From: Panacibacter microcysteis
GTDB taxonomy: Bacteria; Bacteroidota; Bacteroidia; Chitinophagales; Chitinophagaceae
DNA length: 64,000 bases
NCBI RefSeq assembly: GCF_015831355.1
Contig: NZ_JADWYR010000003.1
Coordinates: 340,422 to 404,421, forward strand
Direction of reading: 5' to 3'
A program made the position numbers and the translations under genes. The notes below the pieces were generated by a model. The model searched no databases. It worked only from the letters and a program-made list of their open reading frames with translations, and had not been told where the DNA came from. Shown here piece by piece: positions 5,007-55,485 of the stretch (within the stretch, counting starts at the first letter, position 1; every line of letters begins with the position of its first letter).

Positions 5007-5084
5007 GGCTGCAGTCGCGTTAACATTCCGGCGTACAAGAGTGCGACGCAACGATGCTGATGAGCGGTCAAATGCCTGGCTCAT
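5007..5084 (-). repeat. Interspersed repeat R03 (A-type core, reverse)
   Basis: GTACAAGAGTGCGACGCAA at 5033-5051 with ATGAGCCAGGC-type arm on minus strand. Confidence 0.8.
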
Positions 5085-33552: not shown

Positions 33553-35550
33553 ATGGAAACTACAAAACAAAAACTAATGTTGGCCCTTGTGGCAGTGATT
33601 GTTCTTTTTTCTGTTTCCTGGATAAAGAACGAAAACAAAAAAACTGACACTCCCGGTTCTGCTTACGACGCAATTTCTTCAACCGCACAAAACCTTGCAC
33701 TCGAAACATTTAGTAAAGATTTCTACGACGAAGAAGCTATTTTCAATTTTGCAGGTAAAAGAAAAAGAGTTCCACCTGCAGATGATGTAATGGTGCAAAG
33801 AATTCCGGGAGATAATTTACACCTGCTGGTAATGGCCGTGTACCCGTATGGAAAATTTCATGAGCCGTTTGTGAAAATAAATAACGCTGGAGAGGAAGTT
33901 ACACTGACAGACGACGGTAAGGGTGTAGATAAAGTTGCAGGTGATGGCATTTATACTGCCAAAATATTTACAGATGTAAAAGAATTCAGAAAGCAGGCAA
34001 TTGCCATGCTGAAAGAAACAATAAAAAATAACTGGGAACCTTTGTTTACCGACAGGGAACTTAATTATAGCACCTTGTGTGAACAAAACCCTTTTAGTGA
34101 GGCAAAATTTGATGGTAATGAAGCGGTGTCAATAGGTAACCTTACCGCTGCCGAAGCAGGCACTGTAAAAGCACTTGACAAAGTAAGGGCAAATAGTATT
34201 TTTCTTACAGATCTTTCAGTAGTTGAAAATCCGACACGCACCTGGAACAGTTGTGCGCAAACAGGTAACGTTGATGGCCCATGGACTTTCAAAACATTAA
34301 TGAAGAATCTTGCCACCCAAACGCCTTCCCAGCCCGCAACAGACCAGCGTGTTTCTGATTTTGTAAAAGGCTGGTTAAATAACTGGGCTGTGCAAAAGAT
34401 CATCAATGAAGATACCGTTGCTGCAAGAACACTGGTGAATGACAAAATCCTGAATCCATGGCTGGCAAAAAGCCTTGCGGCCGGTAACCCGTCAGGATTT
34501 CTTGATATGCGCTTTGCACCATTTAAACTAACTGCTATCGTTAACCGTTTCGATCTTCGTGAAAGAGCAAGAGGAATTCCTGCAGGTGAAGGAAGGTTTA
34601 TTTTCTGCCTTGTAAATGCTGATTGTAATGCTGCTGAGAACTTCAACATTATTTTTGAATACGGTATTCCTAAACCAGATGTTTGTGATTCCTTGAGAAG
34701 CTGGGCAAAGAAGTGGTACGATCTGAAAGATTTAACCCTGGGTTCTGAAGAATACCTGAATGCATTACAGGCAATCACCAACCAATTCACTTTATGTGGA
34801 AGTAATCCGGCCAGGACAAACCAGAGCAGTCTTAATTCAATAAGATCAAATGAAAGAGCGCTTGCAAACACCAACCCTCCGCGTTGGGAACTTAGAGAAT
34901 TTGGTTTAAACGGAACTGGTCTTGCACTAACGCAACGTGCTGTTGCACAGGTACCGGCTGACAGGTATAATGCGCAGGTAGACAATGCTGAAGTACGCAG
35001 GATGGCAAAATTTGTTAATGAAAATTCTGCGGGTATAAATATTGATGATTATGATGTGCCGGCTATATACGATGGATTTCCTTTATTGGGCGGAAAATCA
35101 ACCATACTGGACACACCCGTTGGCCAGCCTACCAGGCCATACCATTGGGATGGTACAGAAGGTGATCCCCAGGCCGACGCCTTTATTGATCTGACTATTA
35201 CAAGACATATTTTCTCGAGAAATGCATGTTCTGGTTGCCACGCTGGTGAGGTGCAAACCTTCTTTACGCATGTGGATCCTGTATTTTTTGGCACAAAAGC
35301 TACGCTCTCAGGATTTTTAACCGGTACTGCCGGAAGAGGTGGCGCAGTAGATGCTGATGGTATACCTGACAACGATAAGTTTAAGGTAAAAGATGCCGCA
35401 GCCAGGGGCAATGGTACAGAACGTTTTCACGTATTTAATGATATCAAAAGAAGAGCTACAGATCTTAAACAGGTTGCTACTTCTACATGCGGAACCGCAT
35501 TTTCTTTAAGAGATGAACTGATGTTTCATCCCGTAGGAGCAGTGCATTAA
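33553..35550 (+). CDS. Membrane-anchored hypothetical protein (665 aa) with a single CxxCH motif
   Basis: N-terminal TM/signal anchor; no recognisable family by eye; CSGCH near C-terminus; preceded by a 490-bp AT-rich region. Confidence 0.55.
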   Translation: METTKQKLMLALVAVIVLFSVSWIKNENKKTDTPGSAYDAISSTAQNLALETFSKDFYDEEAIFNFAGKRKRVPPADDVMVQRIPGDNLHLLVMAVYPYGKFHEPFVKINNAGEEVTLTDDGKGVDKVAGDGIYTAKIFTDVKEFRKQAIAMLKETIKNNWEPLFTDRELNYSTLCEQNPFSEAKFDGNEAVSIGNLTAAEAGTVKALDKVRANSIFLTDLSVVENPTRTWNSCAQTGNVDGPWTFKTLMKNLATQTPSQPATDQRVSDFVKGWLNNWAVQKIINEDTVAARTLVNDKILNPWLAKSLAAGNPSGFLDMRFAPFKLTAIVNRFDLRERARGIPAGEGRFIFCLVNADCNAAENFNIIFEYGIPKPDVCDSLRSWAKKWYDLKDLTLGSEEYLNALQAITNQFTLCGSNPARTNQSSLNSIRSNERALANTNPPRWELREFGLNGTGLALTQRAVAQVPADRYNAQVDNAEVRRMAKFVNENSAGINIDDYDVPAIYDGFPLLGGKSTILDTPVGQPTRPYHWDGTEGDPQADAFIDLTITRHIFSRNACSGCHAGEVQTFFTHVDPVFFGTKATLSGFLTGTAGRGGAVDADGIPDNDKFKVKDAAARGNGTERFHVFNDIKRRATDLKQVATSTCGTAFSLRDELMFHPVGAVH

Positions 35551-42467: not shown

Positions 42468-42690
42468 GAATTTTAGTTGAATTTAATTTTTCGAAAGCGC
42501 AATTTAATTTAGTTCTTCACAATTATTTTACAATTTGCATACAATTAAAATCAATATTCTATATAACTTCACAAACCACACAAAATAGCCTATCGCATAA
42601 ATTTTTACCCATCGCCACTTACTGTCCAAGAAAAACCGAAAAAACGTACTTTAAGCGGCATGCTTGAAATCCAACAAAAGCATATTTATT

Positions 42691-43272
42691 ATGAGAAAGT
42701 TTAACGAATTCTCCGACACCGAGCTAGTGCTCGCATTCCAGGATGGCAATTCCTATGCACTGGAGGCCCTTATCAACCGCTATAAGGACAAATTGTTCAG
42801 TTCAATCCAATTTATTGTGAAAGACAAGTATCTGGCGGAAGATCTTTTCCAGGAAACATTTGTACGTATCATCGACACGTTGCGCAGCAAACGCTACAAT
42901 GAAGAAGGTAAATTCCTTCCATGGGCAATGCGTATTGCACACAACCTTTGTGTGGATTACTTCCGCAAGGTGAAACGAACACCCACTATTGTTACCGGCG
43001 ACAACAAAGATGTATTTGATGTAATCGTTGTGGTTAACGAAAACGCTGAGCAGAAAATAATTAAAAAACAAGGTTACGACCGTATGCACCAAATGCTTTC
43101 AGCATTGCCTGAAGAGCAGCGCGAAGTAATTGTATTACGCCACTTTGGTGATATGAGTTTTAAAGATATCGCAGCAGTTACTAACTGCAGCATAAACACT
43201 GCCCTTGGCAGAATGCGTTACGGTTTAATAAACCTGCGCAAAATGATGCTGGAAAAACAAGTTAGTATCTAA
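42691..43272 (+). CDS. RNA polymerase sigma-70 family (ECF-type) sigma factor
   Basis: Region 2 and region 4 HTH (EVIVLRHFGDMSFKDIAAV); start set to MRKFNEF. Confidence 0.7.
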   Translation: MRKFNEFSDTELVLAFQDGNSYALEALINRYKDKLFSSIQFIVKDKYLAEDLFQETFVRIIDTLRSKRYNEEGKFLPWAMRIAHNLCVDYFRKVKRTPTIVTGDNKDVFDVIVVVNENAEQKIIKKQGYDRMHQMLSALPEEQREVIVLRHFGDMSFKDIAAVTNCSINTALGRMRYGLINLRKMMLEKQVSI

Positions 43273-43513
43273 CAACAGATGCAGGCAACATTATTGTCAT
43301 TCTGTGATGCAAATATGTACCACCGCTTGTCATAGCATATAAGTATTTCAGAATGACAGCCTATGTCTAACGTAAAGCTCTTCTTTTGAAGGGCTTTCTT
43401 TTTTACGGGTCATGAATACATCACATAGTGTATACGCCACACTTTTTATTTTCGACCGGTTCTTTTTCGCAATATTTTTTTAATCTTGTTTATCCAACGA
43501 TAAATAACCAGCC

Positions 43514-44086
43514 ATGAGTAACGACCTAATCCTTCAGATCAGCAACCGCATAAAAGAAAAAAGAAAAGAACAGAAAATAACACTGCAGGAACTGGCAGCG
43601 GAAGTGGGCGTTACCAAAGGCCTGATCTCGCAGATAGAGAATAGCCGCACGGTTCCCTCACTTACAGTGTTACTCAGCATCATAAAATCCCTGCATGTAG
43701 ATCTGAATGATTTTTTTGACAAGCTGGATACATCATCCAGCAACGAGCCGCTTATTATCAGGGCCGGCGAGATATCTACCATAGAAAAAGAATACACCAA
43801 AGGCACCCATTATTTTCGCATCACTTCTTTCAAGCACCAGGGCAAACTCGTAGACGTAGTGTTGTACAAGCAGGAGAAAACGGCAAGAAAAGGCTATGTA
43901 TCTACACAGGCGCATGAATTTGATTACATGCTGAAAGGTAAAATGCAGTACACAATAGAAGGAAAAAAGTATGTGCTGGAGGCCGGCGATTCCTTCTACT
44001 ACGATGCCCGCAAAGAACACCACACCAAGTGCTTAAGTGAAGAGCCCTTTGAAATGCTGGTCGTTTATTTTTTTGACGAAGAATAA
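43514..44086 (+). CDS. XRE-family HTH transcriptional regulator with C-terminal cupin domain
   Basis: N-terminal HTH_XRE (ITLQELAAEVGVTKGLISQIENSR) plus cupin barrel. Confidence 0.75.
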   Translation: MSNDLILQISNRIKEKRKEQKITLQELAAEVGVTKGLISQIENSRTVPSLTVLLSIIKSLHVDLNDFFDKLDTSSSNEPLIIRAGEISTIEKEYTKGTHYFRITSFKHQGKLVDVVLYKQEKTARKGYVSTQAHEFDYMLKGKMQYTIEGKKYVLEAGDSFYYDARKEHHTKCLSEEPFEMLVVYFFDEE

Positions 44087-44092
44087 TTTTTT

Positions 44093-44172
44093 GGGCCAGG
44101 GCAGCATTGCTACTATCAGGCTTTTCTTGCGTCGCACTCTTGTACACCAAAACACTATGCAGCATAGTGCAC
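44093..44172 (+). repeat. Interspersed repeat R19 (A-type), full length
   Basis: GGGCCAGGGCAGCATTGCTACTATCAGGC...TTGCGTCGCACTCTTGTAC (44127-44145)...CTATGCAGCATAGTGC; 6 bp after XRE-cupin stop and its T-tract. Confidence 0.85.
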
Positions 44173-44354
44173 CTCCGTTAATTTTTTCACTCATCATCCT
44201 GCTCATGATTAGCGCTATACCCGCCTGAAATTGCCAACTGTTGATTTATGCATAAACACGGGCAGCAAAGCCTGTATGTCACTTTTTCATCAGGTATTCA
44301 TAAACAGCTTTGCCTGCAGAAAAAATAGTTTAGTAATACTGAACATTTTAAGCA

Positions 44355-44440
44355 TGGTGCGCAGGCCGGGCTGAACAATGTTCTGAACGTACAAGTGAGT
44401 GACACAACAGGAGCTGAAGCCAGTAATACAGCCGGTTTTC
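44355..44440 (-). repeat. Interspersed repeat R20 (B-type, reverse)
   Basis: GTACAAGTGAGTGACACAA at 44389-44407; minus strand reads CCGGCTGTATTACTGGCTTCAGC...core. Confidence 0.8.
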
Positions 44441-44609
44441 AAATTTTTCCTCTTAGTATAAGAAAAACATTTCTGAGTATAGTATTTATAAAATTATTAA
44501 ATTGTTAAGCAGTAAAAGTTTACAATTACTTTACTATTTGTTAATGATTGCTTGTGACATATGGAGGGATGGATAAATAATTTCGCCACCAATTAACCAA
44601 ATTAACGTT

Positions 44610-47600
44610 ATGAAGCAGCATTTTAACCACGTATTGAAAGGATGCATGATTTTATTTGTATCCTTTTTTTTATTGCTGCATGCCAGCGCCCAAAGCATGC
44701 AGTTGAAAGGCCGTATTACAGATGCAACAACGAAACAAGCGGTTGCATCAGCTACGGTTGAAAACACCAACACAAAGAAATCTGTGTTGACAGACAATGA
44801 CGGAAATTTCAGCATTGCTGTAAATAAGGGAGATGTGCTAACGGTAATTTTTATCGGCTACCAATCGAAATCGGTTACAGTACAGGACGAAAGCTTTATT
44901 ACAATTGAAATTGCTGCAACAGACAATCAGTTGAATGACGTTGTTGTAACCGCTCTTGGTGTTAAAAAAGAAACCAAAAGACTGGGTTACTCAATACAGG
45001 AAGTAAAAGGTGAAGACCTGATAAAAGCAAGAGATCAAAACCCTATAACAGGGTTAACAGGTAAAGTTGCCGGTCTTTCTGTAGGCGCATCTGCAGAAAT
45101 GCTCAGAAAGCCTACCGTTATCCTGCGTGGTAATGAAATAACATTGTACGTGGTAGATGGTGTGCCGGTTAGTTCAGACACCTGGAATATAAGCCCGGAT
45201 GACATTGAAACGTACACGGTGTTAAAAGGTCCTGCTGCTGCTGCATTGTATGGCAGCCGTGCACAATACGGCGCCATTCTCATCACAACCAAAAAAGGGT
45301 TGAAGCGTAAGGGGTTTACGGTAGAGCTAAACTCAACGAATTCTATGGACAAAGGTTTTCTTGCATTTCCAAGGCTGCAGGATGAGTATGGCCCGGGAGA
45401 AAACCAGATGTATGCCTTTGGCAACGGTAAGGGTGGTGGCCTTTTTGATAATGATTATGATGTGTGGGGACCGCGTTTTGATGGCCGACTTTTGCCACAA
45501 TACGATGGTAAGTATGATCCCAATACAACATATACCACAACTTTCCCCGGCGGTTATCAATACACCGGAAATATAGAGCCAACACCATGGGTGGCTCGCG
45601 GCAAAAACAACCTCGATAATTTTCTTAGAACTGGTTTTCAAACAACTAACAATGTAGCATTAAGCGCTACAGGCGATAATTATAATCTTCGTTTTTCATT
45701 GTCGCACTCTTACCAGCAGAGCATGATTCCAAATATGGAATTAAACATAACCAACTTTAATATGTATGGGTCGTACAATGTAAGCAAGCGTTTAAAAATA
45801 GATGCAAACCTAAACTTTAATAAACAGTATACGCCCAACTACCCGGATGTGGATTATGGTCCAAACAGCCTGATCTACAATGTCGCAATTTGGACGGGTG
45901 CCGATTGGGACGTAACCGCGCCTGATATTAAAGGCATGTGGCAGGCTGGTAAAGTTGGTACACAGTCTGTGTTTGCAGAATACCAGCGTTATCACAATCC
46001 ATGGTTTATGGTTAATGAATGGTTGCGTGGACACTATAAGAGTGATATCTACGGATATGTATCTGGTAATTATAAAATAGACGACCACCTGAATGTAAAC
46101 CTGCGCACACAGATTTCAACTTACAACCTGTTGCGTACAGAAAAAATGCCCTTTTCCGCACACCCTTATGGCAGAGAAGGCAATATGGGAGATTACAGGG
46201 AAGATAGGAGAGACCTGTTTGAAAACAATACAGACCTGCAGTTAAACTACAATTATACTGTTGCAAACTTTTTAAACCTCTCAGGCCTTGTGGGCGGTAA
46301 TGCAAGATTGTTTAGTTACAATTCAAACTGGGCTTCAACTGACTACCTGAACATTCCCAATGTGTACAGCTTTAGTAACTCTCTAAACCCTATACAGGCC
46401 AGTAGTTTCAACGCTGATATGCGGGTATACAGCGCCTATTATTCCCTGGATGCATCGCTGGGGAAATATGCTACAATTTCTGTTACCGGCCGTGTAGATA
46501 AGTCTTCTGCTTTACCTAAAGGCAACAACAGTTATTTTTACCCGAGCGTATCTGTTTCTTCTGTAATATCCGATTATGTGAAAATGCCTGAGGTTATTTC
46601 TTTCTTAAAGGTAAGAGGTTCTTATGCTGCGGTACATGGCGATGCAACTTCCGCAACTGTTGGTACTGCACCATTTAATTCTATAACAGCCTTTGGTACG
46701 AGCCCATCCGGTAACTCTTTGTATGATTATCCGCTGGACTATGGTAATAATTACACGTCACCTTACGGTGGCCCGGATTATTCGCTTGTTGCTTTATATA
46801 ATACCAGTAAACCATATAATAATCAAACTGCCGCATACTATACAGGTAACCTTTATGATCCTAATATTAAAACTTTCAACCGTGTAAGTTATGAAGGTGG
46901 TGTGGACATGAAGTTTTTAAAAAACCGTCTCGGTCTTTCCGGTACTTACTTCCAATATGTTGACGGTCCGAGAATATTGCAGAATCCTATTTCATCTTCA
47001 ACCGGCTACAGTTATTACTACCTGAATGCGTTAACAACAAAGAAGACCGGTTACGAAATTTCTTTAACAGGTACACCTGTAAAAACCAAGAATTTCACCT
47101 GGAATACATTGATAAACTGGAGCACCTACCAGGACAAATACGCAGAGCTGCCACCCGGACAAACCACCTATAATACATTCTTTCGCGAGGGCGATAGGGT
47201 AGATGCATTTTATAGCAGCGCATTTGTAAAAACCGCAGATGGACAAATCATATTTGACCAGGCTGGTAAGCCACTGGTTAACCCTGTATCACAGTTCCTG
47301 GGTTACCTGAATGCAGATTTTAGCTGGAGTTTTTACAACAGTGTAAGCTGGAAAAATCTTTCAGTTGGTTTCCAGTTTGATGGTCGTGTGGGTGGTGTAA
47401 CTACAGACTACATGCACAACAAAACCATGCGTGGCGGAAGAAATATCGAAACTATACAAGGTGCTTTTGGCGCGGCAAGATTATCAGATGATAACAATGC
47501 AGGCAACCCCGACTATCTTGGTATTTACGTAGGAGAGGGTGTAACTGTAAGCAACAATACCGCTATCAATTTTGATTCCGAAACAGGTGAAATATTGAAT

Positions 47601-47936
47601 TATAAAGACCTTCAATTTGCACCTAATTCGCAGGTTTCTCTTGTGCAGGATTACATAAGTAAATATTACAATGTAAGTGAAGCCAACCTTATGAGTAAAA
47701 CATATGCCAAGCTGCGTGAGGTTACGATCACTTACAATTTCCCACAACAATGGCTGCAGAAGAGTTTTATCAGCAGATTAAGTGTTTCGCTTGTAGGCCG
47801 TAATCTTTTATACTTCTACAAAGACAAAAGATTCAAAGATGTTGATCTAGACCAATATAATTACAGTACTGGTGGTACAGACCTTCAATCGCCCACAATG
47901 CGCAGGTATGGTTTAAATATCAACGTAGTATTTTAA
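44610..47936 (+). CDS. SusC-family TonB-dependent outer-membrane transporter
   Basis: Signal peptide, CarbopepD_reg-like domain, TonB box/plug, SusC conserved N-terminal motif, C-terminal aromatic residue. Confidence 0.85.
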   Translation: MKQHFNHVLKGCMILFVSFFLLLHASAQSMQLKGRITDATTKQAVASATVENTNTKKSVLTDNDGNFSIAVNKGDVLTVIFIGYQSKSVTVQDESFITIEIAATDNQLNDVVVTALGVKKETKRLGYSIQEVKGEDLIKARDQNPITGLTGKVAGLSVGASAEMLRKPTVILRGNEITLYVVDGVPVSSDTWNISPDDIETYTVLKGPAAAALYGSRAQYGAILITTKKGLKRKGFTVELNSTNSMDKGFLAFPRLQDEYGPGENQMYAFGNGKGGGLFDNDYDVWGPRFDGRLLPQYDGKYDPNTTYTTTFPGGYQYTGNIEPTPWVARGKNNLDNFLRTGFQTTNNVALSATGDNYNLRFSLSHSYQQSMIPNMELNITNFNMYGSYNVSKRLKIDANLNFNKQYTPNYPDVDYGPNSLIYNVAIWTGADWDVTAPDIKGMWQAGKVGTQSVFAEYQRYHNPWFMVNEWLRGHYKSDIYGYVSGNYKIDDHLNVNLRTQISTYNLLRTEKMPFSAHPYGREGNMGDYREDRRDLFENNTDLQLNYNYTVANFLNLSGLVGGNARLFSYNSNWASTDYLNIPNVYSFSNSLNPIQASSFNADMRVYSAYYSLDASLGKYATISVTGRVDKSSALPKGNNSYFYPSVSVSSVISDYVKMPEVISFLKVRGSYAAVHGDATSATVGTAPFNSITAFGTSPSGNSLYDYPLDYGNNYTSPYGGPDYSLVALYNTSKPYNNQTAAYYTGNLYDPNIKTFNRVSYEGGVDMKFLKNRLGLSGTYFQYVDGPRILQNPISSSTGYSYYYLNALTTKKTGYEISLTGTPVKTKNFTWNTLINWSTYQDKYAELPPGQTTYNTFFREGDRVDAFYSSAFVKTADGQIIFDQAGKPLVNPVSQFLGYLNADFSWSFYNSVSWKNLSVGFQFDGRVGGVTTDYMHNKTMRGGRNIETIQGAFGAARLSDDNNAGNPDYLGIYVGEGVTVSNNTAINFDSETGEILNYKDLQFAPNSQVSLVQDYISKYYNVSEANLMSKTYAKLREVTITYNFPQQWLQKSFISRLSVSLVGRNLLYFYKDKRFKDVDLDQYNYSTGGTDLQSPTMRRYGLNINVVF

Positions 47937-47998
47937 TTACCTGCAGTCGTTAAAAGCAAATACCAAAAAACCTGATTCATTCGAAAACGAATAATACA

Positions 47999-49579
47999 AT
48001 GAAAAAATATTTGAATATACTGGTTACAGCTTTAATTATACAGCTTGCACTAACCGGTTGTAAAAAAAGTTTTGATGATCTGTATCAAAACCCGAATAAA
48101 CCCACATCCGTTCCTGCATCATTGTTGCTGAATGGCATCTTGAACGATATGTATGACGGACCGGGTAGCATGTACGAACGTTGGTGCCAATACTATTGCA
48201 TTAACTATGATTATTACGGCAATAACCGTTACGATTTTGGCTCTGGTGCAGACTATTATGCCACGCTAAAAAACGTAACGAAAATGGAGCAGGAAGCATT
48301 GAGTGCAGGTCTTCCTGAGGTTAACCCATACGGTGCAATGGCTAAATTTTTCAAGGCTTATCTCTTTACAAAAATGAGTCTTGAAATGGGAGATATACCC
48401 ATGACTGAAGCATTGCAGGGTTTAAATAACCTTACGCCGGCATATGATGCACAAAAGGTCGTATTTCAAAAATCGTTTGCATGGCTCGATAGTGCAAACA
48501 ATGAGCTCGCTTCAATGATTGCCACAGGCGAAACAATGTCCGGTGATATTTACTTCGGTAATAATCTTACAAAGTGGCAGAAAGCTGTCAATACATTACA
48601 CATCAGGTTACTCATCGCCTTAAGCAAAAAAGCCGATGATGCTGAATTAAATATCAAAGGCCAGTTCGGTGCAATTGTAAACGACAGTGAAAAATACCCT
48701 GTAATGGAAGGTGCAGATGATAACTTGCAGTTTATTTACACGCATCCAACAAATGACTACCCCAACAGCCCTGATAGTTATGGTTTTGATGGTTTGCGTT
48801 ACAATATGTCTGCAACATATCTTGGCTTGCTTACTTCGCTCAAAGACCCACGTACATTCATAGTATCAGAGCCCGCAACGGCTTTGGTAGACGGCGGTAA
48901 AAGCCCTACCAGTTACGATGCTTTTGTTGGCGCAAGCCCCGGTGAAGATCTGGGTATCATGTTCAACAAAGCCGGCAATGGTCAATATTCGCAATTAAAC
49001 CGCTGGCGCTATTACCAGACATATACAGCAGAACCATCTATACAGCTTGGCTTTCCTGAATTATGTTTCAACATTGCAGAAGCAATAAACCGCGGCTGGA
49101 TCAGTTCAGGTAAACTTGGTGGCGCAGAAGATTATTACAAAGCCGGTATAAAAGCATCAATGGCTTTTTACGATATTCCTGAAACAGGAGAAATTACTAC
49201 ACATGTTTACGAATCAGGCAGTCCGGGTGGTGGAGATGTTAAATACACCACTTATACTGTTACCGTTAATTTCGATAATTACTACAACCAGGCTACCGTA
49301 AAATATGCAGGCGGTTCAACAGGGCTTGCACAGGTTTTACAGCAGCGTTATCTTGCCTTGTTTCGTCACTCCGGCCTCGAGTCGTATTACACATGGCGCA
49401 GAACAGGAGTGCCTGAATTTACCACTGGACCCGGTACAGGAAACAGTAACAGGATAGCGCTACGCTTTCAATATCCTTATGATGAAAGAACCGCAAATAC
49501 CGCCCACTACGAAGCAGCATTGCAAAACCAGTTTGGTGGTAATGACGACATCAATGGCGAAATGTGGATCATAAAATAA
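47999..49579 (+). CDS. SusD/RagB-family outer-membrane lipoprotein
   Basis: Lipoprotein signal (LTGC), TPR-like SusD fold, immediately downstream of SusC. Confidence 0.8.
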   Translation: MKKYLNILVTALIIQLALTGCKKSFDDLYQNPNKPTSVPASLLLNGILNDMYDGPGSMYERWCQYYCINYDYYGNNRYDFGSGADYYATLKNVTKMEQEALSAGLPEVNPYGAMAKFFKAYLFTKMSLEMGDIPMTEALQGLNNLTPAYDAQKVVFQKSFAWLDSANNELASMIATGETMSGDIYFGNNLTKWQKAVNTLHIRLLIALSKKADDAELNIKGQFGAIVNDSEKYPVMEGADDNLQFIYTHPTNDYPNSPDSYGFDGLRYNMSATYLGLLTSLKDPRTFIVSEPATALVDGGKSPTSYDAFVGASPGEDLGIMFNKAGNGQYSQLNRWRYYQTYTAEPSIQLGFPELCFNIAEAINRGWISSGKLGGAEDYYKAGIKASMAFYDIPETGEITTHVYESGSPGGGDVKYTTYTVTVNFDNYYNQATVKYAGGSTGLAQVLQQRYLALFRHSGLESYYTWRRTGVPEFTTGPGTGNSNRIALRFQYPYDERTANTAHYEAALQNQFGGNDDINGEMWIIK

Positions 49580-49600
49580 GTGTTGTGTTCTCTTAAACCT

Positions 49601-49628
49601 GGCAAAGCCGAGAGGCTTTGCCTTTTTA
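49601..49628 (+). terminator. Rho-independent terminator after SusD
   Basis: GGCAAAGCCGAGAGGCTTTGCC followed by TTTTTAT. Confidence 0.7.
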
Positions 49629-49640
49629 TAATTAATAATA

Positions 49641-49715
49641 TTGAACCGGCTGCATTACTACTATGAAGCATCGTTGTGTCACTCACTTGTACGGCAGTAT
49701 GCACTTCAGCATATG
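49641..49715 (+). repeat. Interspersed repeat R21 (B-type core with A-type arms), full length
   Basis: TTGAACCGGCTGCATTACTACTATGAAGC...TTGTGTCACTCACTTGTAC (49674-49692)...GTATGCACTTCAGCATATGC; follows SusD terminator. Confidence 0.85.
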
Positions 49716-49781
49716 CAAACGGTGTTTGTAAGCAATAGCTTTTCTTAACTATAGAGGCAACAGCTATAAGATATTTCGCCG

Positions 49782-49850
49782 GGGGCTGGCAACTGCTCAA
49801 TATTGTTATGGCGTACAAGAGTGCGACGCAACAGGCGATCAGTAAAGTAC
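49782..49850 (-). repeat. Interspersed repeat R22 (A-type, reverse)
   Basis: GTACAAGAGTGCGACGCAA at 49813-49831 + CAGGCGATC; creates a spurious N-terminus for the AP-family gene. Confidence 0.8.
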
Positions 49851-49877
49851 AAAAGATTGGCTCATAAAATTTATACC

Positions 49878-50951
49878 ATGAAAAAATTATCAGCACTGTT
49901 ATTGTTTATTACCGTACTGTTCAATACATACGCGCAAAGCAAAACCGACAACCTTGTTATTGTAACGCTTGACGGTCTGCGCTGGCAGGAAGTTTTTAAA
50001 GGCGTAGACTCTGCAATCATTGCAAACAAAAAGTTTACCAGCGATTCTGAACAGGTGATAAAAAATTTTTGGAGTGCCGATGCCGAGGGGCGCAGGCAAA
50101 AACTGTTTCCTTTTTTATGGAACACCGTAGCCAGGCACGGGCAATTGCATGGCAACCGCACTAAAGGCAGTAAAGTAAACAATGCCAACCCTTACTGGTT
50201 TTCTTACCCTGGTTACAATGAAATCTTTACCGGCTACCCTGATACTGCTGTAAACTCGAATGATAAAATTGCCAATAAAAACGAAAATGTTTTAGAATTT
50301 ATCAACAGGCAGAAAGGCTATAACGGTAAGGTGGCTGCTTTTGCAACATGGGACGTTTTTCCATACATACTCAACAGCGAAAGAAGTAAAGTGTATGTGA
50401 ATGCAGGTGTAGACAGTTTTCACTTTACATCACCTTCTTTTAAGTTGCTGAACGATATGCAGTTTCTTTCTGCCAAACCCATCGATGTACGCCTTGACGT
50501 AAATACTTATCTTGCTGCCAGGACTTACCTGCAGGAGCATAAGCCAAAAGTGTTGTATATAGCCTTTGATGAAACAGATGATTTTGCACATTCGGGTATG
50601 TACGATCAATATTTAAAAAGTGCGCATGCAGAAGATGCTATGATTGCAGACCTGTGGCAAACGATACAATCGATGCCCGGTTATAAAAATAATACTACAC
50701 TGATCATCACCTGCGATCATGGCCGCGGAGACGCTGTAAAAGAAGAATGGACTTCTCACGGCGATAAGATCCAGGATGCAGGCCAGATATGGTTTGCAGC
50801 CATTGGGCCGCATATAAAGCCTACTGGTGAAGCAGCAACAGACGAATTGTTTTACCAGGCCCAGCTTGCAACAACCATGGCCGCTTTGCTCGGGCTTGAG
50901 TTTAAACCTGCACACCCTGTTATGCAACCATTACAAACGCTTTTAAAATAG
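49878..50951 (+). CDS. Alkaline-phosphatase-superfamily enzyme, NPP/type-I phosphodiesterase-like
   Basis: Signal peptide; LVIVTLDGLRWQ metal-site motif of NPP/AP superfamily; N-terminal extension MLWRTRVRRNRR is derived from repeat R22 and is rejected. Confidence 0.65.
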   Translation: MKKLSALLLFITVLFNTYAQSKTDNLVIVTLDGLRWQEVFKGVDSAIIANKKFTSDSEQVIKNFWSADAEGRRQKLFPFLWNTVARHGQLHGNRTKGSKVNNANPYWFSYPGYNEIFTGYPDTAVNSNDKIANKNENVLEFINRQKGYNGKVAAFATWDVFPYILNSERSKVYVNAGVDSFHFTSPSFKLLNDMQFLSAKPIDVRLDVNTYLAARTYLQEHKPKVLYIAFDETDDFAHSGMYDQYLKSAHAEDAMIADLWQTIQSMPGYKNNTTLIITCDHGRGDAVKEEWTSHGDKIQDAGQIWFAAIGPHIKPTGEAATDELFYQAQLATTMAALLGLEFKPAHPVMQPLQTLLK

Positions 50952-50956
50952 ATGGC

Positions 50957-51529
50957 ATGAACAAACCAGAAACAACAACAAATGAGATCATCACGCTTTT
51001 TGAAAAATATGGTAATGAAGACTATGATGGCGAGCCTGTATCGCAAACATCGCACATGATACAGTGTGCTATGCAGGCCATGGCAGAAGGCGGCGATATG
51101 GAACTTATACTCGGTGCATTCCTGCACGATGTTGGTCACCTGCTAAGGCACGAGCATGCGGTGGAAGAAATGGGTGGTCTCGGTGCAGTGAACCATGAAG
51201 GCATAGGCGGCGAATACCTGCGCCGTAAAGGTTTTACAGAAAGAGTGTGCGCAATGGTGGAAAAACATGTAGATGCAAAACGCTACCTTGTTGCTACAGA
51301 CCCCGGTTACAAAAATAAATTGTCAGAAGCCAGTTGGCAAACGCTCAATATGTGGCAGGGTGGGCCTATGAGCGATGCAGAAGCGGCATTGTTTAAACAA
51401 CACCCTTACTTCGATGATATTATAAAAGTGCGTTTATGGGATGAAGGCGGCAAAGACCATGATATGGTCATGCTGCCGCTTGGTCATTTTCGCAACCTGA
51501 TCAATGAATATTTAAAAGAAAGAAACTGA
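50957..51529 (+). CDS. HD-domain protein, PhnZ-like (phosphonate-degradation HD oxygenase family)
   Basis: 190 aa, HD motif (HMIQCAMQA...FLHDVGHLL), size and motifs match PhnZ / TIGR03276-type HD proteins. Confidence 0.65.
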   Translation: MNKPETTTNEIITLFEKYGNEDYDGEPVSQTSHMIQCAMQAMAEGGDMELILGAFLHDVGHLLRHEHAVEEMGGLGAVNHEGIGGEYLRRKGFTERVCAMVEKHVDAKRYLVATDPGYKNKLSEASWQTLNMWQGGPMSDAEAALFKQHPYFDDIIKVRLWDEGGKDHDMVMLPLGHFRNLINEYLKERN

Positions 51530-52215
51530 TGAAAGATATTAAGCTTGTAGTGTTTGATATTGCAGGAACAACGGTAAAAGATCATGGAGAAATAGCTACC
51601 GCTTTTCACGATGCAATGAAAGAAAGCGGTTACGATATACCGCATGAAAAAATTTACCCGTTAATGGGTTACAAGAAACCCGAAGCAATAAGAATGATGC
51701 TCGAAGAATATGAATCTGATGTGGCTGCAATAACAACAGCTTATATCAATGCTATTCACGACAGGTTTATTGCTCTAATGGTTGCATACTACCGGTCAAC
51801 AGATCAGTTACAGGCATTGCCACATGCAGAAGAGGTCTTTGCCTGGCTGAAAAAGCATGACATCAGGATTGGGCTAGATACCGGATTCTCAACAGATATT
51901 ACCAGTATCATCATCGAAAGACTTGGGTGGCTAAAAGACAACAAGATCGACTATGTTGTTTGTAGTAATGAAGTAGCCGCAGGCAGGCCACAGCCTTACA
52001 TGATTCAAAAAATGATGAAGGCGGCAGGAATTGCTGATGCAAAACAGGTCATTAAGATTGGCGATACAGAAGTCGATATAAACGAGGGTAAAAATGCAGG
52101 TTGCCTCTATACAATTGGTATAACTACCGGCGCGTTTACAAGAGCAGCACTGCAGCCTTATGATCCCGATTTTATAATAGACGATCTTATAGAGCTGATT
52201 GAGATAATACAGTAA
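51529..52215 (+). CDS. HAD-superfamily hydrolase, phosphonatase (PhnX)-like
   Basis: VVFDIAGTTV motif I; overlaps the HD gene stop (ATGA coupling). Confidence 0.65.
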   Translation: MKDIKLVVFDIAGTTVKDHGEIATAFHDAMKESGYDIPHEKIYPLMGYKKPEAIRMMLEEYESDVAAITTAYINAIHDRFIALMVAYYRSTDQLQALPHAEEVFAWLKKHDIRIGLDTGFSTDITSIIIERLGWLKDNKIDYVVCSNEVAAGRPQPYMIQKMMKAAGIADAKQVIKIGDTEVDINEGKNAGCLYTIGITTGAFTRAALQPYDPDFIIDDLIELIEIIQ

Positions 52216-52218
52216 AAT

Positions 52219-52298
52219 TTTGAGCCGGACTGCATTGCTGCTATGTAGCTTTTGTTGCGTCGCACTCTTGTACTGCAACATGTAACGCAGCAATGTTC
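52219..52298 (+). repeat. Interspersed repeat R23 (A-type), full length
   Basis: TTTGAGCCGGACTGCATTGCTGCTATGTAGC...TTGCGTCGCACTCTTGTAC (52255-52273)...TGCAACATGTAACGCAGCAATG; 4 bp after HAD gene stop. Confidence 0.85.
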
Positions 52299-52351
52299 GA
52301 AGCCGTCCCATCTACACCGTCATCATTCTTACCGGTACTCAAAAGCAATCC

Positions 52352-53653
52352 ATGTACACATCAGCATACCTTCAAAAAAAACTTGCCAGTACACCCGCAT
52401 GGGCTTTGTCATTGTATGCAGCATTAACAGCGTTTTGTGTTTATTTCTGTATGTATGCATTCCGGAAACCTTTTACAGCCGCCGGTTTTGAAGGTATCAC
52501 ATACTGGCATATCAACTATAAGGTGTGGCTTGTAACGGCACAGGTTATTGGCTACATGCTTAGTAAATTCTATGGCATCCGTTTTATTTCTGCTATGAAA
52601 GGAGAGAAGCGGGCCATAACAATTATTAAACTCATTCTTAGCGCATGGGCAGCGCTGCTATTGTTTGCTCTTGTGCCTGCACCTTATAACATCGTTTTTT
52701 TATTGCTCAATGGGTTTCCTTTAGGCATGGTTTGGGGCTTGGTTTTTAGCTTCGTGGAAGGCCGGAAGGCTACAGAATTTATGGGGGCAGTGCTATCTAT
52801 CAGTTTTATCTTTTCTTCTGGTGTTGTAAAGTCTGGCGGTAAATCTTTACTCATCAACTGGCATATAAAAGAAACATGGATGCCTTTTTTAACAGGTGGG
52901 TTATTTGTGCTGCCCATGCTTTTGTCGGTATGGCTATTGAATCATATTCCGCCGCCTGACAAAGAAGACGAACGCCACAGAAGTGTAAGACCACCCATGA
53001 CGAAAGAAGAGCGTAAAACTTTTCTTGCAACTTTTTTGCCTGGTATAATCATCATAGTAACCACGTATGTGCTGCTTACCATTCTGCGGGATTTCAGGGA
53101 TAATTTTGCCAACGAACTTTACAAAGAGCTGGGGTATGGCAACGATGCCTCCATATTTACCAAAACAGAGATTCCTGTTTCGTTGATCGTGCTGCTTTGC
53201 ATGAGCTTACTGATACTCGTGAAAAACAACTTCAGGGCATTTTTGGTAAATCATTACATCGTGATGGGTGGTTATGCAACAGCGCTTATTTCAACCCTGT
53301 TGTTTATGGCACATCATTTAGACCCGATTGTTTGGATGACTATGATCGGTACAGGCCTGTATCTTAGTTATGTGCCCTTCAATGCATTGTATTTTGAGCG
53401 CATGATTGCCACATACAGGATAAGAAGTAATGTAGGTTTTATTATGTATATCGCAGATGCATTTGGTTACCTGGGCAGCGTGTTGATTTTAATTGCCAAA
53501 GAGTTTATTGGTGTTCAACTTTCATGGACGAGCTTTTTTACCAATGCTGTTATTGTAGTTACCCTGGCAGGCATAGCAGGTACTGCTATTGCGGCTGTTT
53601 ATTTCAAAAGAAAATATTTATCTATACAACATACCCAAAAGATTTATGGCTAG
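52352..53653 (+). CDS. Polytopic membrane protein, putative transporter (DUF5690-like)
   Basis: About 12 predicted TM helices; conserved position between PhnX-like and FAD oxidoreductase genes. Confidence 0.55.
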   Translation: MYTSAYLQKKLASTPAWALSLYAALTAFCVYFCMYAFRKPFTAAGFEGITYWHINYKVWLVTAQVIGYMLSKFYGIRFISAMKGEKRAITIIKLILSAWAALLLFALVPAPYNIVFLLLNGFPLGMVWGLVFSFVEGRKATEFMGAVLSISFIFSSGVVKSGGKSLLINWHIKETWMPFLTGGLFVLPMLLSVWLLNHIPPPDKEDERHRSVRPPMTKEERKTFLATFLPGIIIIVTTYVLLTILRDFRDNFANELYKELGYGNDASIFTKTEIPVSLIVLLCMSLLILVKNNFRAFLVNHYIVMGGYATALISTLLFMAHHLDPIVWMTMIGTGLYLSYVPFNALYFERMIATYRIRSNVGFIMYIADAFGYLGSVLILIAKEFIGVQLSWTSFFTNAVIVVTLAGIAGTAIAAVYFKRKYLSIQHTQKIYG

Positions 53654-54773
53654 CAAAAACGCAATTGTCATTGGTGCAGGCATAGTTGGTCTTGCAATGG
53701 CCCGAAGCCTGGCCGAAAAAGGATATACAGTAGACGTATTTGAGCGTAATGAAAAAGCAGTTGGCGCATCTGTAAGAAACTTTGGAATGGTTTGGCCCAT
53801 CGGCCAGCCTACTGGTGCTTTGTACGAGCGGGCATTAAGATCCAGGTCAATATGGAAAGCAGTTTGTAAAGGTGCTGGTTTATGGCATAATGAAGTTGGC
53901 AGCCTGCACCTTGCCTATAATGATCTTGAATGGGATGTTTTGCAACAGTTTGCAGCCGTAGAGAACAATGCAAGACCGGTTACTGCGATCGATGTGCCCG
54001 CAACACTCAAAAAAAGTGATGCAGTAAACCCGGTTAATTTAAAAGGCGCGTTGTGGAGTGCAGATGAAATGATTGTCGAATCAAGGGTTGCTATCGAGAA
54101 ACTGCCGGCATACCTCTCCGAAAAATATCGCATCACTTTCCATTTTAATACGGCTGTTAACCGTATAGAATATCCTGCAGTGTACGCAGGCAAAAAGCAA
54201 TGGAAAGCAGATATTATTTACGTATGCAGCGGGCCTGACCTGGAAACATTATACCCTGATGTATTTGCTGCCAATTATTTTACCAAAAGCAAACTACAAA
54301 TGATGCGGCTGACCATGCAGCCGGACGGCTGGCGCATTGGCCCGTCTTTATGCGGTGGATTATCACTCATACACTACAAAGGTTTTCAGTCCGCACCATC
54401 GTTACCTGCGTTAAAGGCTTTCTATGAAGCTAATCTTCCCGATTATATAAAATGGGGTGTTCACGTAATGGTTTCTCAAAACGCCGAAGGTGAACTTACG
54501 ATAGGTGACAGCCACGAGTATGGTTTGGTGTTTGACCCTTTTGATAAAGCCTTTATCAATAACCTGATCATTGATTATATGAAACAGTTTGCGGTGTTTA
54601 AAGACTGGACGATGATACAGAGCTGGCATGGCATTTATCCCAAACGTACCAATGGAGCAATTGATTTTGTTTTTTCACCTGAAAACGGTGTGACCATTGT
54701 AAACGGCCTTGGCGGTAATGGTATGACACTGAGTTTCGGGCTGGCCGAGGAAGTGGTGGGGGCTTCGGTCTGA
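53646..54773 (+). CDS. FAD-dependent oxidoreductase (TIGR03364-like, D-amino-acid-oxidase fold)
   Basis: N-terminal GAGIVGLA dinucleotide-binding motif; start overlaps upstream stop (ATGGCTAG). Confidence 0.7.
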   Translation: MASKNAIVIGAGIVGLAMARSLAEKGYTVDVFERNEKAVGASVRNFGMVWPIGQPTGALYERALRSRSIWKAVCKGAGLWHNEVGSLHLAYNDLEWDVLQQFAAVENNARPVTAIDVPATLKKSDAVNPVNLKGALWSADEMIVESRVAIEKLPAYLSEKYRITFHFNTAVNRIEYPAVYAGKKQWKADIIYVCSGPDLETLYPDVFAANYFTKSKLQMMRLTMQPDGWRIGPSLCGGLSLIHYKGFQSAPSLPALKAFYEANLPDYIKWGVHVMVSQNAEGELTIGDSHEYGLVFDPFDKAFINNLIIDYMKQFAVFKDWTMIQSWHGIYPKRTNGAIDFVFSPENGVTIVNGLGGNGMTLSFGLAEEVVGASV

Positions 54774-54801
54774 CCGTCCCGGTCACACCCGAGTCGCGCT
54801 A

Positions 54802-55485
54802 CTACGGTTTTACAAACTCCTTCACACTGCCATCACTATAAGCAACTATGGCTTTGGCAGCCATGTTGATAAACAAACCATTTTCCACTACACCGGGAAT
54901 ATTATTCAATTGCTGTTGCAACAATGCGGGGTTGTCAATTTGTTCAAAGTGGCAATCAAGAATGTAATGCCCATGATCGGATATAAAAATACCGTCCTGT
55001 TTTTGGCGCAAAACAATATTACTGCAACCAAGTTGTGCAATATGTTTTTGGGTTTGCCGCCAGGCAAATGTTATCACTTCAACAGGTAGCGGAAATTTAC
55101 CCAGGTTTTGTACAAGCTTGCTTTCATCTGCAATGATGATGTTTTGTACGGAAGCTGCTGCAACAATTTTTTCCTGCAACAATGCACCTCCACCGCCTTT
55201 GATAAGATTTAGCGAAGGGTCAATTTCATCTGCGCCGTCTATTGTCAGATCCAGTTGCGCCACATCATTCAGGTCTACAAGCGGAATGTTTAATGAACGT
55301 GCCAGTTGCGCAGTTTGCGCAGAAGTTGGCACGCCTGTTATGTGCAAACCTTCCTTTGTTTTATTGGCCAGGGTATGTATAAAATAATAAACGGTGGACC
55401 CAGTGCCGATACCAATGGTCATTCCGTCTTCCACCAGGGTAGCAGCGTATTCGCCGGCCTTTTGTTTTGCTATATCGTTACTCAT
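54802..55485 (-). CDS. rpiA: Ribose-5-phosphate isomerase A
   Basis: GIGTGSTV and DGADE motifs. Confidence 0.85.
   Translation of the reverse strand: MSNDIAKQKAGEYAATLVEDGMTIGIGTGSTVYYFIHTLANKTKEGLHITGVPTSAQTAQLARSLNIPLVDLNDVAQLDLTIDGADEIDPSLNLIKGGGGALLQEKIVAAASVQNIIIADESKLVQNLGKFPLPVEVITFAWRQTQKHIAQLGCSNIVLRQKQDGIFISDHGHYILDCHFEQIDNPALLQQQLNNIPGVVENGLFINMAAKAIVAYSDGSVKEFVKP

Follow-up and report, generated by a model that had tools for sequence, protein, structure and literature searches.

A conserved SusCD-linked aminophosphonate locus of Panacibacter microcysteis as a candidate system for scavenging esterified 2-aminoethylphosphonate

In nature, 2-aminoethylphosphonate (AEP) is mostly a bound component of lipids and glycans (PMC8316502), while the known bacterial systems for its use begin with free AEP and take it up through ABC or GlpT-like transporters. 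How might bound AEP be released and imported? A locus of Panacibacter microcysteis (Bacteroidota, Chitinophagaceae) raises this question and makes it testable. We analyzed a stretch of 64,000 nucleotides (NCBI RefSeq assembly GCF_015831355.1, contig NZ_JADWYR010000003.1, positions 340,422 to 404,421 of the forward strand), referred to here as the window. Between positions 43514 and 54773 it holds eight plus-strand genes, encoding an XRE-HTH/cupin regulator, a SusC/SusD pair, a secreted enzyme of the alkaline phosphatase superfamily (here called APsf), a PhnZ-like HD-domain protein, a PhnX-like HAD hydrolase, a DUF5690 membrane protein, and a PbfD-type FAD-dependent oxidase (Table 1). This order had been proposed in an original prediction made by a model from the DNA letters. 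A check of open reading frames (ORFs) found all eight where they had been placed, and family matches agree with the order, although two starts were amended. We consider it likely that the genes form a locus in the style of a polysaccharide utilization locus (PUL), of the "Pus" or PusCD-like kind, that scavenges AEP and its relatives N-methyl-AEP and (R)-1-hydroxy-AEP (HAEP) from esterified forms. Candidate sources are phosphonolipid head groups of the glycero-AEP type and AEP-decorated glycans.

The three cytoplasmic enzymes point to aminophosphonate catabolism. The FAD protein matches TIGR03364 at 411.3 bits (curated cutoff, 285.1) over profile positions 3 to 365 of 365, carries the N-terminal GxGxxG FAD-binding motif IGAGIVGLA, and has the DAO fold (PF01266, 128 bits). 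TIGR03364 is the PbfD family, two members of which have been shown to turn AEP and N-methyl-AEP into phosphonoacetaldehyde (Zangelmi et al. 2023, PMC10590968). The role of amine oxidase first listed for this protein as a proposal fits, and it is no longer merely proposed, since homologues have been shown to be active. PbfD takes the place of the transaminase PhnW and accepts N-methyl-AEP as well. PbfD2 of Mariniblastus fucicola, encoded in a pbfD-phnX-phnZ cluster, has kcat/KM values of 3400 M-1 s-1 for AEP and 13500 M-1 s-1 for N-methyl-AEP, and the characterized PbfD enzymes are inactive on the tested nonphosphonate analogues taurine, beta-alanine, and sarcosine (PMC10590968). In the window the pbfD gene is clustered with the HAD and HD genes in one operon, a context that fits Table S1 of the same study.

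Among protein families, the HD protein fits TIGR03276 (Phn-HD) best, with TmpB (146 bits) and PhnZ1 (110 bits) scoring lower, and it is 44% identical to the crystallized PhnZ 4MLM (E 2.8e-46). All 14 of the metal and substrate positions of PhnZ that were checked are kept: the di-iron ligands H34, H58, D59, H80, H104, and D161 correspond to H33, H57, D58, H80, H104, and D162; Y24, E27, and H62 correspond to Y23, E26, and H61; and K108, S126, T129, Q133, and R158 are likewise retained. The roles of these residues in PhnZ, including that of E27 with the amino group and of H62 with the hydroxyl group of the substrate, have been described (PMC7916636). The HAD protein fits TIGR03351 best (TIGR01422 gives 134 bits against a cutoff of 220) and keeps the DxAGT nucleophile motif (D10-I-A-G-T), the Schiff-base lysine K50, and R153, D179, and D183. 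The last four correspond to Lys53, Arg160, Asp186, and Asp190 of PhnX, and we take the roles of the HAD positions to follow those in the Bacillus cereus enzyme. The PhnZ-like, PhnX-like, and TIGR03364-type assignments were thus upheld, the first two by retained catalytic or hallmark residues and the third by a score above the curated cutoff; in the hidden Markov model searches none of the three proteins proved to be a generic HD protein, a beta-phosphoglucomutase, or a glycine oxidase. Judged by sequence, the PbfD, PhnX-like, and PhnZ trio is a known catabolic module.

A DUF5690-anchored scan, with one genome kept per species, produced 80 related loci (individual loci carry L numbers below), onto which the window proteins were mapped by tblastn. 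All eight proteins occur together in 13 of these loci, so the cluster is kept as a unit, and SusCD occurs together with PbfD in 33. Such clustering goes far beyond chance, with dozens of genomes in two families sharing it. Loci of Chitinophagaceae are colinear with the window, and in Mucilaginibacter and Pseudopedobacter (Sphingobacteriaceae) the genes are split between two divergent operons, APsf-SusD-SusC-HD and XRE-HAD-DUF5690-FAD. The block SusC-SusD-APsf-HD-HAD-DUF5690-FAD was also recovered in Ferruginibacter by two APsf-anchored look-ups (L081:1-3687 and L082:1-3738); there the cluster is without the XRE regulator and adjoins divergently transcribed genes for a PHO4 phosphate transporter and PhoU_div. 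The same Ferruginibacter neighborhood contains a protein of 435 to 441 amino acids with no Pfam match. In Mucilaginibacter rubeus and relatives (L056:7227-9058), an AraC-family regulator and an aldo/keto reductase, which might act on acetaldehyde or phosphonoacetaldehyde, lie between XRE and HAD-DUF5690-FAD.

Within this conserved frame, whole modules are exchanged. Limnovirga soli, a Ferruginibacter metagenome-assembled genome (MAG), and another MAG lack the pair of PbfD and PhnX-like enzymes, and between PhnZ and DUF5690 they carry PhnA (TIGR02335, 496 bits), the phosphonoacetaldehyde dehydrogenase PhnY (TIGR03250, 665 bits), and PhnW (TIGR02326, 485 bits). These loci also encode a sarcosine-oxidase-like FAD enzyme, perhaps a PbfB or PbfC, inside the frame SusC-SusD-APsf-PhnZ...DUF5690. 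The replacement of PbfD and the PhnX-like enzyme by the canonical PhnWYA set, which is specific for AEP, points to AEP as the cargo of SusCD, APsf, and DUF5690. The esterase is exchanged as well: in Chitinophaga and Puia the position of APsf is taken by PF01663 phosphodiesterases that carry CHB_HEX_C and PA14 domains (98 to 108 bits), and one Chitinophagaceae locus has a PF01663 enzyme secreted by the type IX secretion system (T9SS) together with a plain TonB receptor. Mucilaginibacter has an additional phospholipase C (TIGR03396, 820 bits), and Phnomibacter has two beta-propeller/PF04185 phosphoesterases. These exchanges suggest that the system always needs some secreted activity against phosphorus esters, whatever the enzyme family, and the nucleotide pyrophosphatase/phosphodiesterase (NPP)-type replacements and the added phospholipase C point to import of AEP in esterified form. 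A single P-O-C ester links AEP to the rest of a phosphonolipid or phosphonoglycan, and cleavage of this bond frees AEP directly.

The SusC protein carries, besides its SusC/RagA family match, the TIGR04057 signature (47.3 bits against a cutoff of 46.2), and it has Plug and CarbopepD_reg_2 domains; a domain search found no STN domain in it. The translation of SusD contains the lipobox LTGC. The window SusC shares 59 to 61% identity with the in-cluster SusC of Mucilaginibacter, and across the two families in-cluster SusC and SusD proteins share 57 to 65%, compared with ~30% for unrelated SusC pairs from the same loci, which indicates a dedicated SusCD lineage. The pair is clustered with alkaline phosphatase superfamily and phosphonate enzymes and without carbohydrate-active enzymes (CAZymes), in line with the definition of Pus; family searches found no CAZyme within 43514-54773.

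From its most likely start, the ATG at 49878 (the earlier ORF start was 49803), APsf has the N terminus MKKLSALLLFITVLFNTYAQS, a type I signal peptide. It carries an LDGLR motif, and its match to PF01663 is partial (profile positions 77 to 229 of 342). The family has an invariant bimetal-site pattern, D32, S109-x-P...T118-G119...N126/N128, D234...H238, and D280-H281. The label "NPP-type" given to this enzyme held in part: the protein is secreted and passes the PF01663 threshold, but its best structural neighbors in a fold search are PafA and PhoK rather than NPPs, and its nucleophile is Ser rather than the Thr of the NPP type. APsf, for which more than 7,200 homologues score at E <= 1e-5, forms a family of its own within the alkaline phosphatase superfamily. 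Its genomic context suggests a candidate role as an AEP-ester (phosphonate monoester) hydrolase.

The membrane protein is, as had been supposed, a DUF5690 protein: it has a full-length match to PF18943 (MFS, i.e., major facilitator superfamily, clan) and a 6+6 MFS fold. Its model adopts the MFS fold, with GlpT and phosphate transporters among the top structural matches of a fold search; a comparison with Protein Data Bank (PDB) sequences gave no match, and a literature search found nothing relevant on DUF5690. Of 8,000 candidates scored, more than 7,700 are homologues at E <= 1e-5. Outside phosphonate clusters, DUF5690 genes adjoin a phospholipase C gene in Dyella acidisoli (L045:7487-9787) and a PhoD-like phosphatase gene in Chryseolinea (L073:8713-9777), neighbors that fit the import of small phospho- or phosphono-amine head groups by DUF5690. 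We propose AEP import as its candidate role.

Taken along the path of the substrate, SusD would capture an AEP ester, which the TonB-powered SusC would import through the outer membrane. In the periplasm APsf would cut the R-O-P ester to give free AEP, a phosphonate-monoester hydrolysis that would be chemically equivalent to a phosphodiesterase or phospholipase C-type cut, and the DUF5690 MFS protein would move AEP over the inner membrane. Cytoplasmic PbfD, by the activity of its homologues, would convert AEP or N-methyl-AEP to phosphonoacetaldehyde with release of ammonia or methylamine, and the PhnX-like HAD protein, as its conserved catalytic residues suggest, would then yield acetaldehyde and phosphate. 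Separately, the PhnZ-like oxygenase, given its fully conserved active site, is predicted to split prehydroxylated (R)-HAEP into glycine and phosphate. The XRE-cupin protein would govern the operons via a palindromic operator, its cupin domain probably sensing a small-molecule ligand.

Several other explanations of the locus can be weighed against the same evidence. The substrates might be the free compounds AEP, N-methyl-AEP, and HAEP instead of their conjugates, with SusCD as a high-affinity scavenger at the outer membrane and APsf as a general periplasmic phosphomonoesterase that would contribute phosphate scavenging. The PusCD1 pair of Flavobacterium johnsoniae binds a ligand as small as inositol-1-phosphate (bioRxiv 10.64898/2026.09.03.749221), PafA and PhoK, the nearest APsf structures, are phosphomonoesterases, and the PHO4 and PhoU-like genes beside the Ferruginibacter locus suggest general phosphate scavenging. 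We nevertheless regard this explanation as unlikely, given that the esterase slot is held elsewhere by PA14- or T9SS-bearing PF01663 phosphodiesterases, phospholipase C, and propeller phosphoesterases, a pattern that fits head-group release better, and that APsf stays with phosphonate genes in the SusCD-less loci L011, L002, L027, and L028. The cargo might also be another aminophosphonate or an organophosphate, such as conjugates of 1-hydroxy-AEP degraded via hydroxy-phosphonoacetaldehyde (a route in old TIGRFAM notes) or phosphoethanolamine or phosphocholine head groups. Consistent with this, the HAD protein belongs to TIGR03351, "PhnX-like" rather than PhnX proper, and is without His56, and a DUF5690 gene of Dyella lies beside phospholipase C without phosphonate genes. 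Such a cargo seems improbable to us in view of the activity of characterized PbfD enzymes on AEP and N-methyl-AEP but not on taurine, beta-alanine, and sarcosine, the AEP-specific PhnW-PhnY-PhnA enzymes that stand in at related loci, and the match between the substrate residues of PhnZ and those of the (R)-HAEP enzyme.

Least credible, in our estimation, is that SusCD and APsf make up a conventional PUL for glycans or phosphoesters and are no more than neighbors of an independent cytoplasmic phosphonate operon. A terminator-like hairpin does separate susD from the enzyme genes, and Sphingobacteriaceae keep SusCD-APsf-HD and HAD-DUF5690-FAD as separate divergent operons. However, the linkage outlasts rearrangement in two families, each of the two Mucilaginibacter operons is preceded by the same operator, and PhnZ moves with the SusCD operon; moreover, the cluster contains no CAZyme, and the nearby alpha-amylase gene lies on the opposite strand and does not accompany the cluster in related loci.

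A number of observations nonetheless count against scavenging of esterified AEP as the function of the locus. Free AEP is small enough for porins, so the cargo of SusCD might differ. Some related loci are without HAD or HD, and both the HD protein (197 against 214.6 bits) and the HAD protein (192 against 218.9 bits) score under the curated cutoffs of their best families. The cap-domain His56 of B. cereus PhnX is replaced by Ala53 in the HAD protein. Neither the eight genes nor the genes flanking them were found to encode a PhnY*-type 2-oxoglutarate-dependent dioxygenase, so that PhnZ would need an already hydroxylated substrate. With PafA, a phosphomonoesterase, as the nearest structure and only marginal matches to PDB sequences, the substrate of APsf is a guess. 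The MFS fold predicted for DUF5690 is silent on its substrate, and most other DUF5690 loci of Dyella have no HD, HAD, or FAD homologue within 10 kb. The window SusD matches PF12771 and PF12741 only, whereas PusD1 and PusD2 belong to pf07980/pf14322 (PMC8115612), a difference drawn from family listings. Finally, all support for a function of the locus comes from sequence, fold searches, synteny, and the literature on homologues.

How does the proposed AEP-scavenging locus relate to known systems? "PusCD" pairs of Flavobacterium are induced on depletion of inorganic phosphate (Lidbury et al. 2020, PMC8115612), and PusCD1 and PusCD2 of F. johnsoniae, which import head groups of phosphoinositol lipids, are required for growth on phosphatidylinositol and glycerophosphoinositol (GroPI) (Connolly et al. 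2026, bioRxiv 10.64898/2026.09.03.749221). Both studies remark in passing that pusCD-like pairs colocalize with aminophosphonate genes. The original prediction knew of no characterization of such an arrangement, and this still stands: only the phosphoinositol-lipid systems have been characterized. The arrangement itself, however, had already been noticed. The window locus resembles PusCD1 and PusCD2 in having a SusC/SusD-type pair dedicated to organophosphorus, with periplasmic phosphoesterases in place of CAZymes. It differs in that PusCD1 and PusCD2 import GroPI and inositol-1-phosphate (IP1), whereas the cargo of the window locus is predicted to have a C-P bond, cleaved in the cytoplasm, and in that their clusters hold a phosphatidylinositol-specific phospholipase C, a phosphodiesterase or PhoA, and regulators of the ECF-sigma/FecR type, while the window locus has XRE-cupin.

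With the pbfD-phnX-phnZ clusters described by Zangelmi et al. (PMC10590968), mostly from Proteobacteria and Planctomycetota, the locus shares the TIGR03364 oxidase, a phosphonatase, and PhnZ; no SusCD, secreted alkaline phosphatase superfamily esterase, DUF5690, or XRE-cupin is described for those clusters, and the window locus has all of these. It shares with the PhnY*/PhnZ pathway an HD di-iron oxygenase with identical metal and substrate residues, but it lacks PhnY*, and its PhnZ would have to obtain (R)-HAEP directly, a supply already suggested for listed phnZ-containing clusters (PMC10590968, Table S1 legend). The route from AEP through phosphonoacetaldehyde to phosphate is common to the PhnWX and PhnWYA pathways, which rely on the ABC systems AepXVW and AepSTU, on the GlpT-like AepP, or on PhnCDE (PMC8316502). 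The window locus has neither an ABC transporter nor a GlpT-like AepP; DUF5690, a separate MFS family, occupies the transporter position, and a TonB-dependent step would come first. As for APsf, it has the fold of the NPP/PafA branch (Xac NPP, ENPP6, ENPP7, PafA, and phosphonate monoester hydrolases) and the bimetal-site motifs D...[S/T]xP...TG...N, DxxxH, and DH, and two members, ENPP6 (a glycerophosphocholine diesterase) and ENPP7 (alkaline sphingomyelinase), make a head-group-releasing cut like the one proposed here. It differs in its 14 to 21% identity to the solved members, its Ser nucleophile, and its much shorter length (357 amino acids).

Our literature searches found no bacterial enzyme described as releasing AEP from its esters, nothing relevant on TIGR03351, and nothing relevant on PhnZ in connection with TonB-dependent transport in Bacteroidota. 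The locus supplies candidates for three missing steps, namely, an outer membrane importer, a periplasmic esterase, and a new family of inner membrane transporters. It is possible, at a little less than an even chance in our judgment, that it represents the first TonB-dependent (SusCD) phosphonate uptake system, reaching from the outer membrane to the cytoplasm and mining the AEP of phosphonolipids or phosphonoglycans, with APsf as a new family of AEP-ester hydrolases, DUF5690 as a new family of aminophosphonate importers, and an XRE-cupin protein that senses aminophosphonate and acts via TTTAG-N5-CTAAA. Such a system would take the PusCD concept beyond phosphate esters to C-P compounds, and it would assign a testable function both to DUF5690 and to a large uncharacterized alkaline phosphatase superfamily family. 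The hosts are abundant soil and rhizosphere Bacteroidota without the usual high-affinity phosphate and organophosphorus ABC systems.

We also asked how the cluster might be regulated. The 12-mer AAGTTTAGTATT occurs in 28 exact copies in 1.44 Mb of locus DNA, compared with ~0.2 expected, and 27 of these stand in front of SusC, HAD, or DUF5690 at a distance of at most 150 nt; the one other copy, in L011, is in the gap between XRE and APsf. In Mucilaginibacter the palindrome AAGTTTAGTATTGCTAAACA precedes both divergent operons. An XRE-cupin orthologue is present within the cluster in 28 related loci, 24 of which have the AAGTTTAGTATT motif, versus 4 of 26 XRE-negative loci, and the motif is missing from the XRE-less loci of Ferruginibacter. 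From this co-occurrence we infer that the XRE-cupin protein is a local regulator and that the palindrome TTTAG-N5-CTAAA is its putative operator. The protein has a PuuR-like domain architecture, but that architecture is all it has in common with PuuR, and its score against NF007408 (PuuR) misses the equivalog cutoff (51.5 bits against 211).

Eight of nine aligned Chitinophagaceae loci show strong conservation ahead of susC. In this upstream region, AAGTTTACAATTACTTTACTATTTGTTAAT is near-invariant in the same proportion of the aligned regions (it has diverged in L010), has a single match in the 64-kb window, and stands ~30 nt before a box of the type TAnnTTTG, the Bacteroidota -7 promoter consensus; the window box TAATTTCG aligns with TAnTTTTG of orthologous loci. 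The susC upstream regions of the two Ferruginibacter loci (L081 and L082) have in common repeated blocks containing CTTAAC, which might be a different regulatory site. An Rfam scan of positions 43000 to 55000 at E <= 0.1 found no riboswitch or other RNA element. A Pho box upstream of susC had been suggested as worth a search; the conserved upstream element follows the XRE gene, not any Pho feature, and no Bacteroidota Pho-box consensus is given in PMC8115612.

Table 1. Features of the locus (window coordinates) and sister loci with exchanged catabolic genes
Feature	Coordinates	Strand	Evidence
XRE-HTH plus cupin regulator	43514-44086	+	HTH_3, 51 bits; Cupin_2, 51 bits
Operator-like imperfect palindrome TAGTTTAGTAATACTGAACAT	44326-44346	+	Fits cross-family consensus AAGTTTAGTATTGCTAAACA
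Degenerate operator-like site GAGTATAGTATTTATAAAATT	44475-44495	+	Alignment with AAGTTTAGTATTTGTAAA(A/T)TT, 8 orthologous Chitinophagaceae loci
Conserved block AAGTTTACAATTACTTTACTATTTGTTAAT upstream of SusC	44516-44545	+	Alignment of 9 Chitinophagaceae regions
Bacteroidota -7-like promoter box TAATTTCG	44578-44585	+	Consensus TAnnTTTG
SusC-type TonB-dependent outer membrane transporter	44610-47936	+	TIGR04056, 449 bits (cutoff, 368)
SusD-like surface lipoprotein, lid of SusC	47999-49579	+	PF12771, 203 bits (SusD-like_2); PF12741, 129 bits
Strong terminator-like hairpin (49601-49622) plus T-run	49601-49632	+	Stem of 9 pairs, 6 G-C, then TTTTTATAAT
APsf, secreted (periplasmic) alkaline phosphatase superfamily enzyme	49878-50951	+	PF01663, 38.5 bits (gathering threshold, 23)
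PhnZ-like HD-domain di-iron oxygenase	50957-51529	+	TIGR03276, 197 bits (cutoff, 214.6)
PhnX-like HAD hydrolase (phosphonoacetaldehyde hydrolase-like)	51529-52215	+	TIGR03351, 192 bits (cutoff, 218.9)
DUF5690 MFS-fold inner membrane protein	52352-53653	+	PF18943, 567 bits
PbfD-type FAD-dependent aminophosphonate oxidase	53646-54773	+	TIGR03364, 411 bits (cutoff, 285)
Sister loci with PhnA/PhnY/PhnW/FAD	L012:4555-9814, L022:1562-6711, L001:5469-8200		

The genes of the cluster are closely packed. The spacing is 62 nt between susC and susD and 5 nt between the APsf and HD genes, the HD and HAD genes have one base in common (TGATG), and the DUF5690 and FAD genes overlap by 8 nt, with the ATG at 53646 as the most likely start of the latter (the earlier ORF start was 53589). 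The hairpin after susD, ahead of the enzyme genes, may attenuate read-through into them. The flanking genes, encoding UvrA (minus strand), an ECF (extracytoplasmic function) sigma factor, RpiA (minus strand), and an alpha-amylase (minus strand), are unrelated to the cluster, and none was found beside it in the 80 related loci. The alpha-amylase was considered as the CAZyme of a PUL and rejected, being encoded downstream on the opposite strand, beyond RpiA, and in none of the related loci. The ECF sigma factor (42664-43272) was likewise rejected as the regulator: a terminator-like hairpin lies 3' of its gene, no anti-sigma gene stands between that gene and XRE, SusC is without STN, and the gene is not kept beside the cluster in related loci.

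A 19-nt repeat, TTGCGTCGCACTCTTGTAC, present in three intergenic gaps of the cluster, was considered as a cluster-specific signal and set aside as a genome-wide dispersed repeat. Its core has 15 copies in the 64-kb window at up to 3 mismatches, 9 of them exact, compared with 0.01 expected by chance, at positions 5033, 10017, 16278, 21285, 25190, 26720, 30951, 33037, 39548, 44127, 49813, 52255, 55583, 61247, and 63885. The copies are found in both orientations, within a loosely conserved ~90-nt element that opens with a T-run and then GAGCCAGGC; the repeat matches nothing in Rfam, shows no conserved RNA structure, and is also found in L003 and L012. Elsewhere in the window, a 665-amino-acid ORF at 33553-35550 (plus strand) has no Pfam match at E <= 1e-6. 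Two T9SS-secreted proteins are apparently unrelated to the cluster, one a sulfatase-family protein (6070-8274, minus strand) that also matches PF01663 and has a MopE-like metal-binding motif and the other a reprolysin-like metalloprotease (18407-21082, plus strand).

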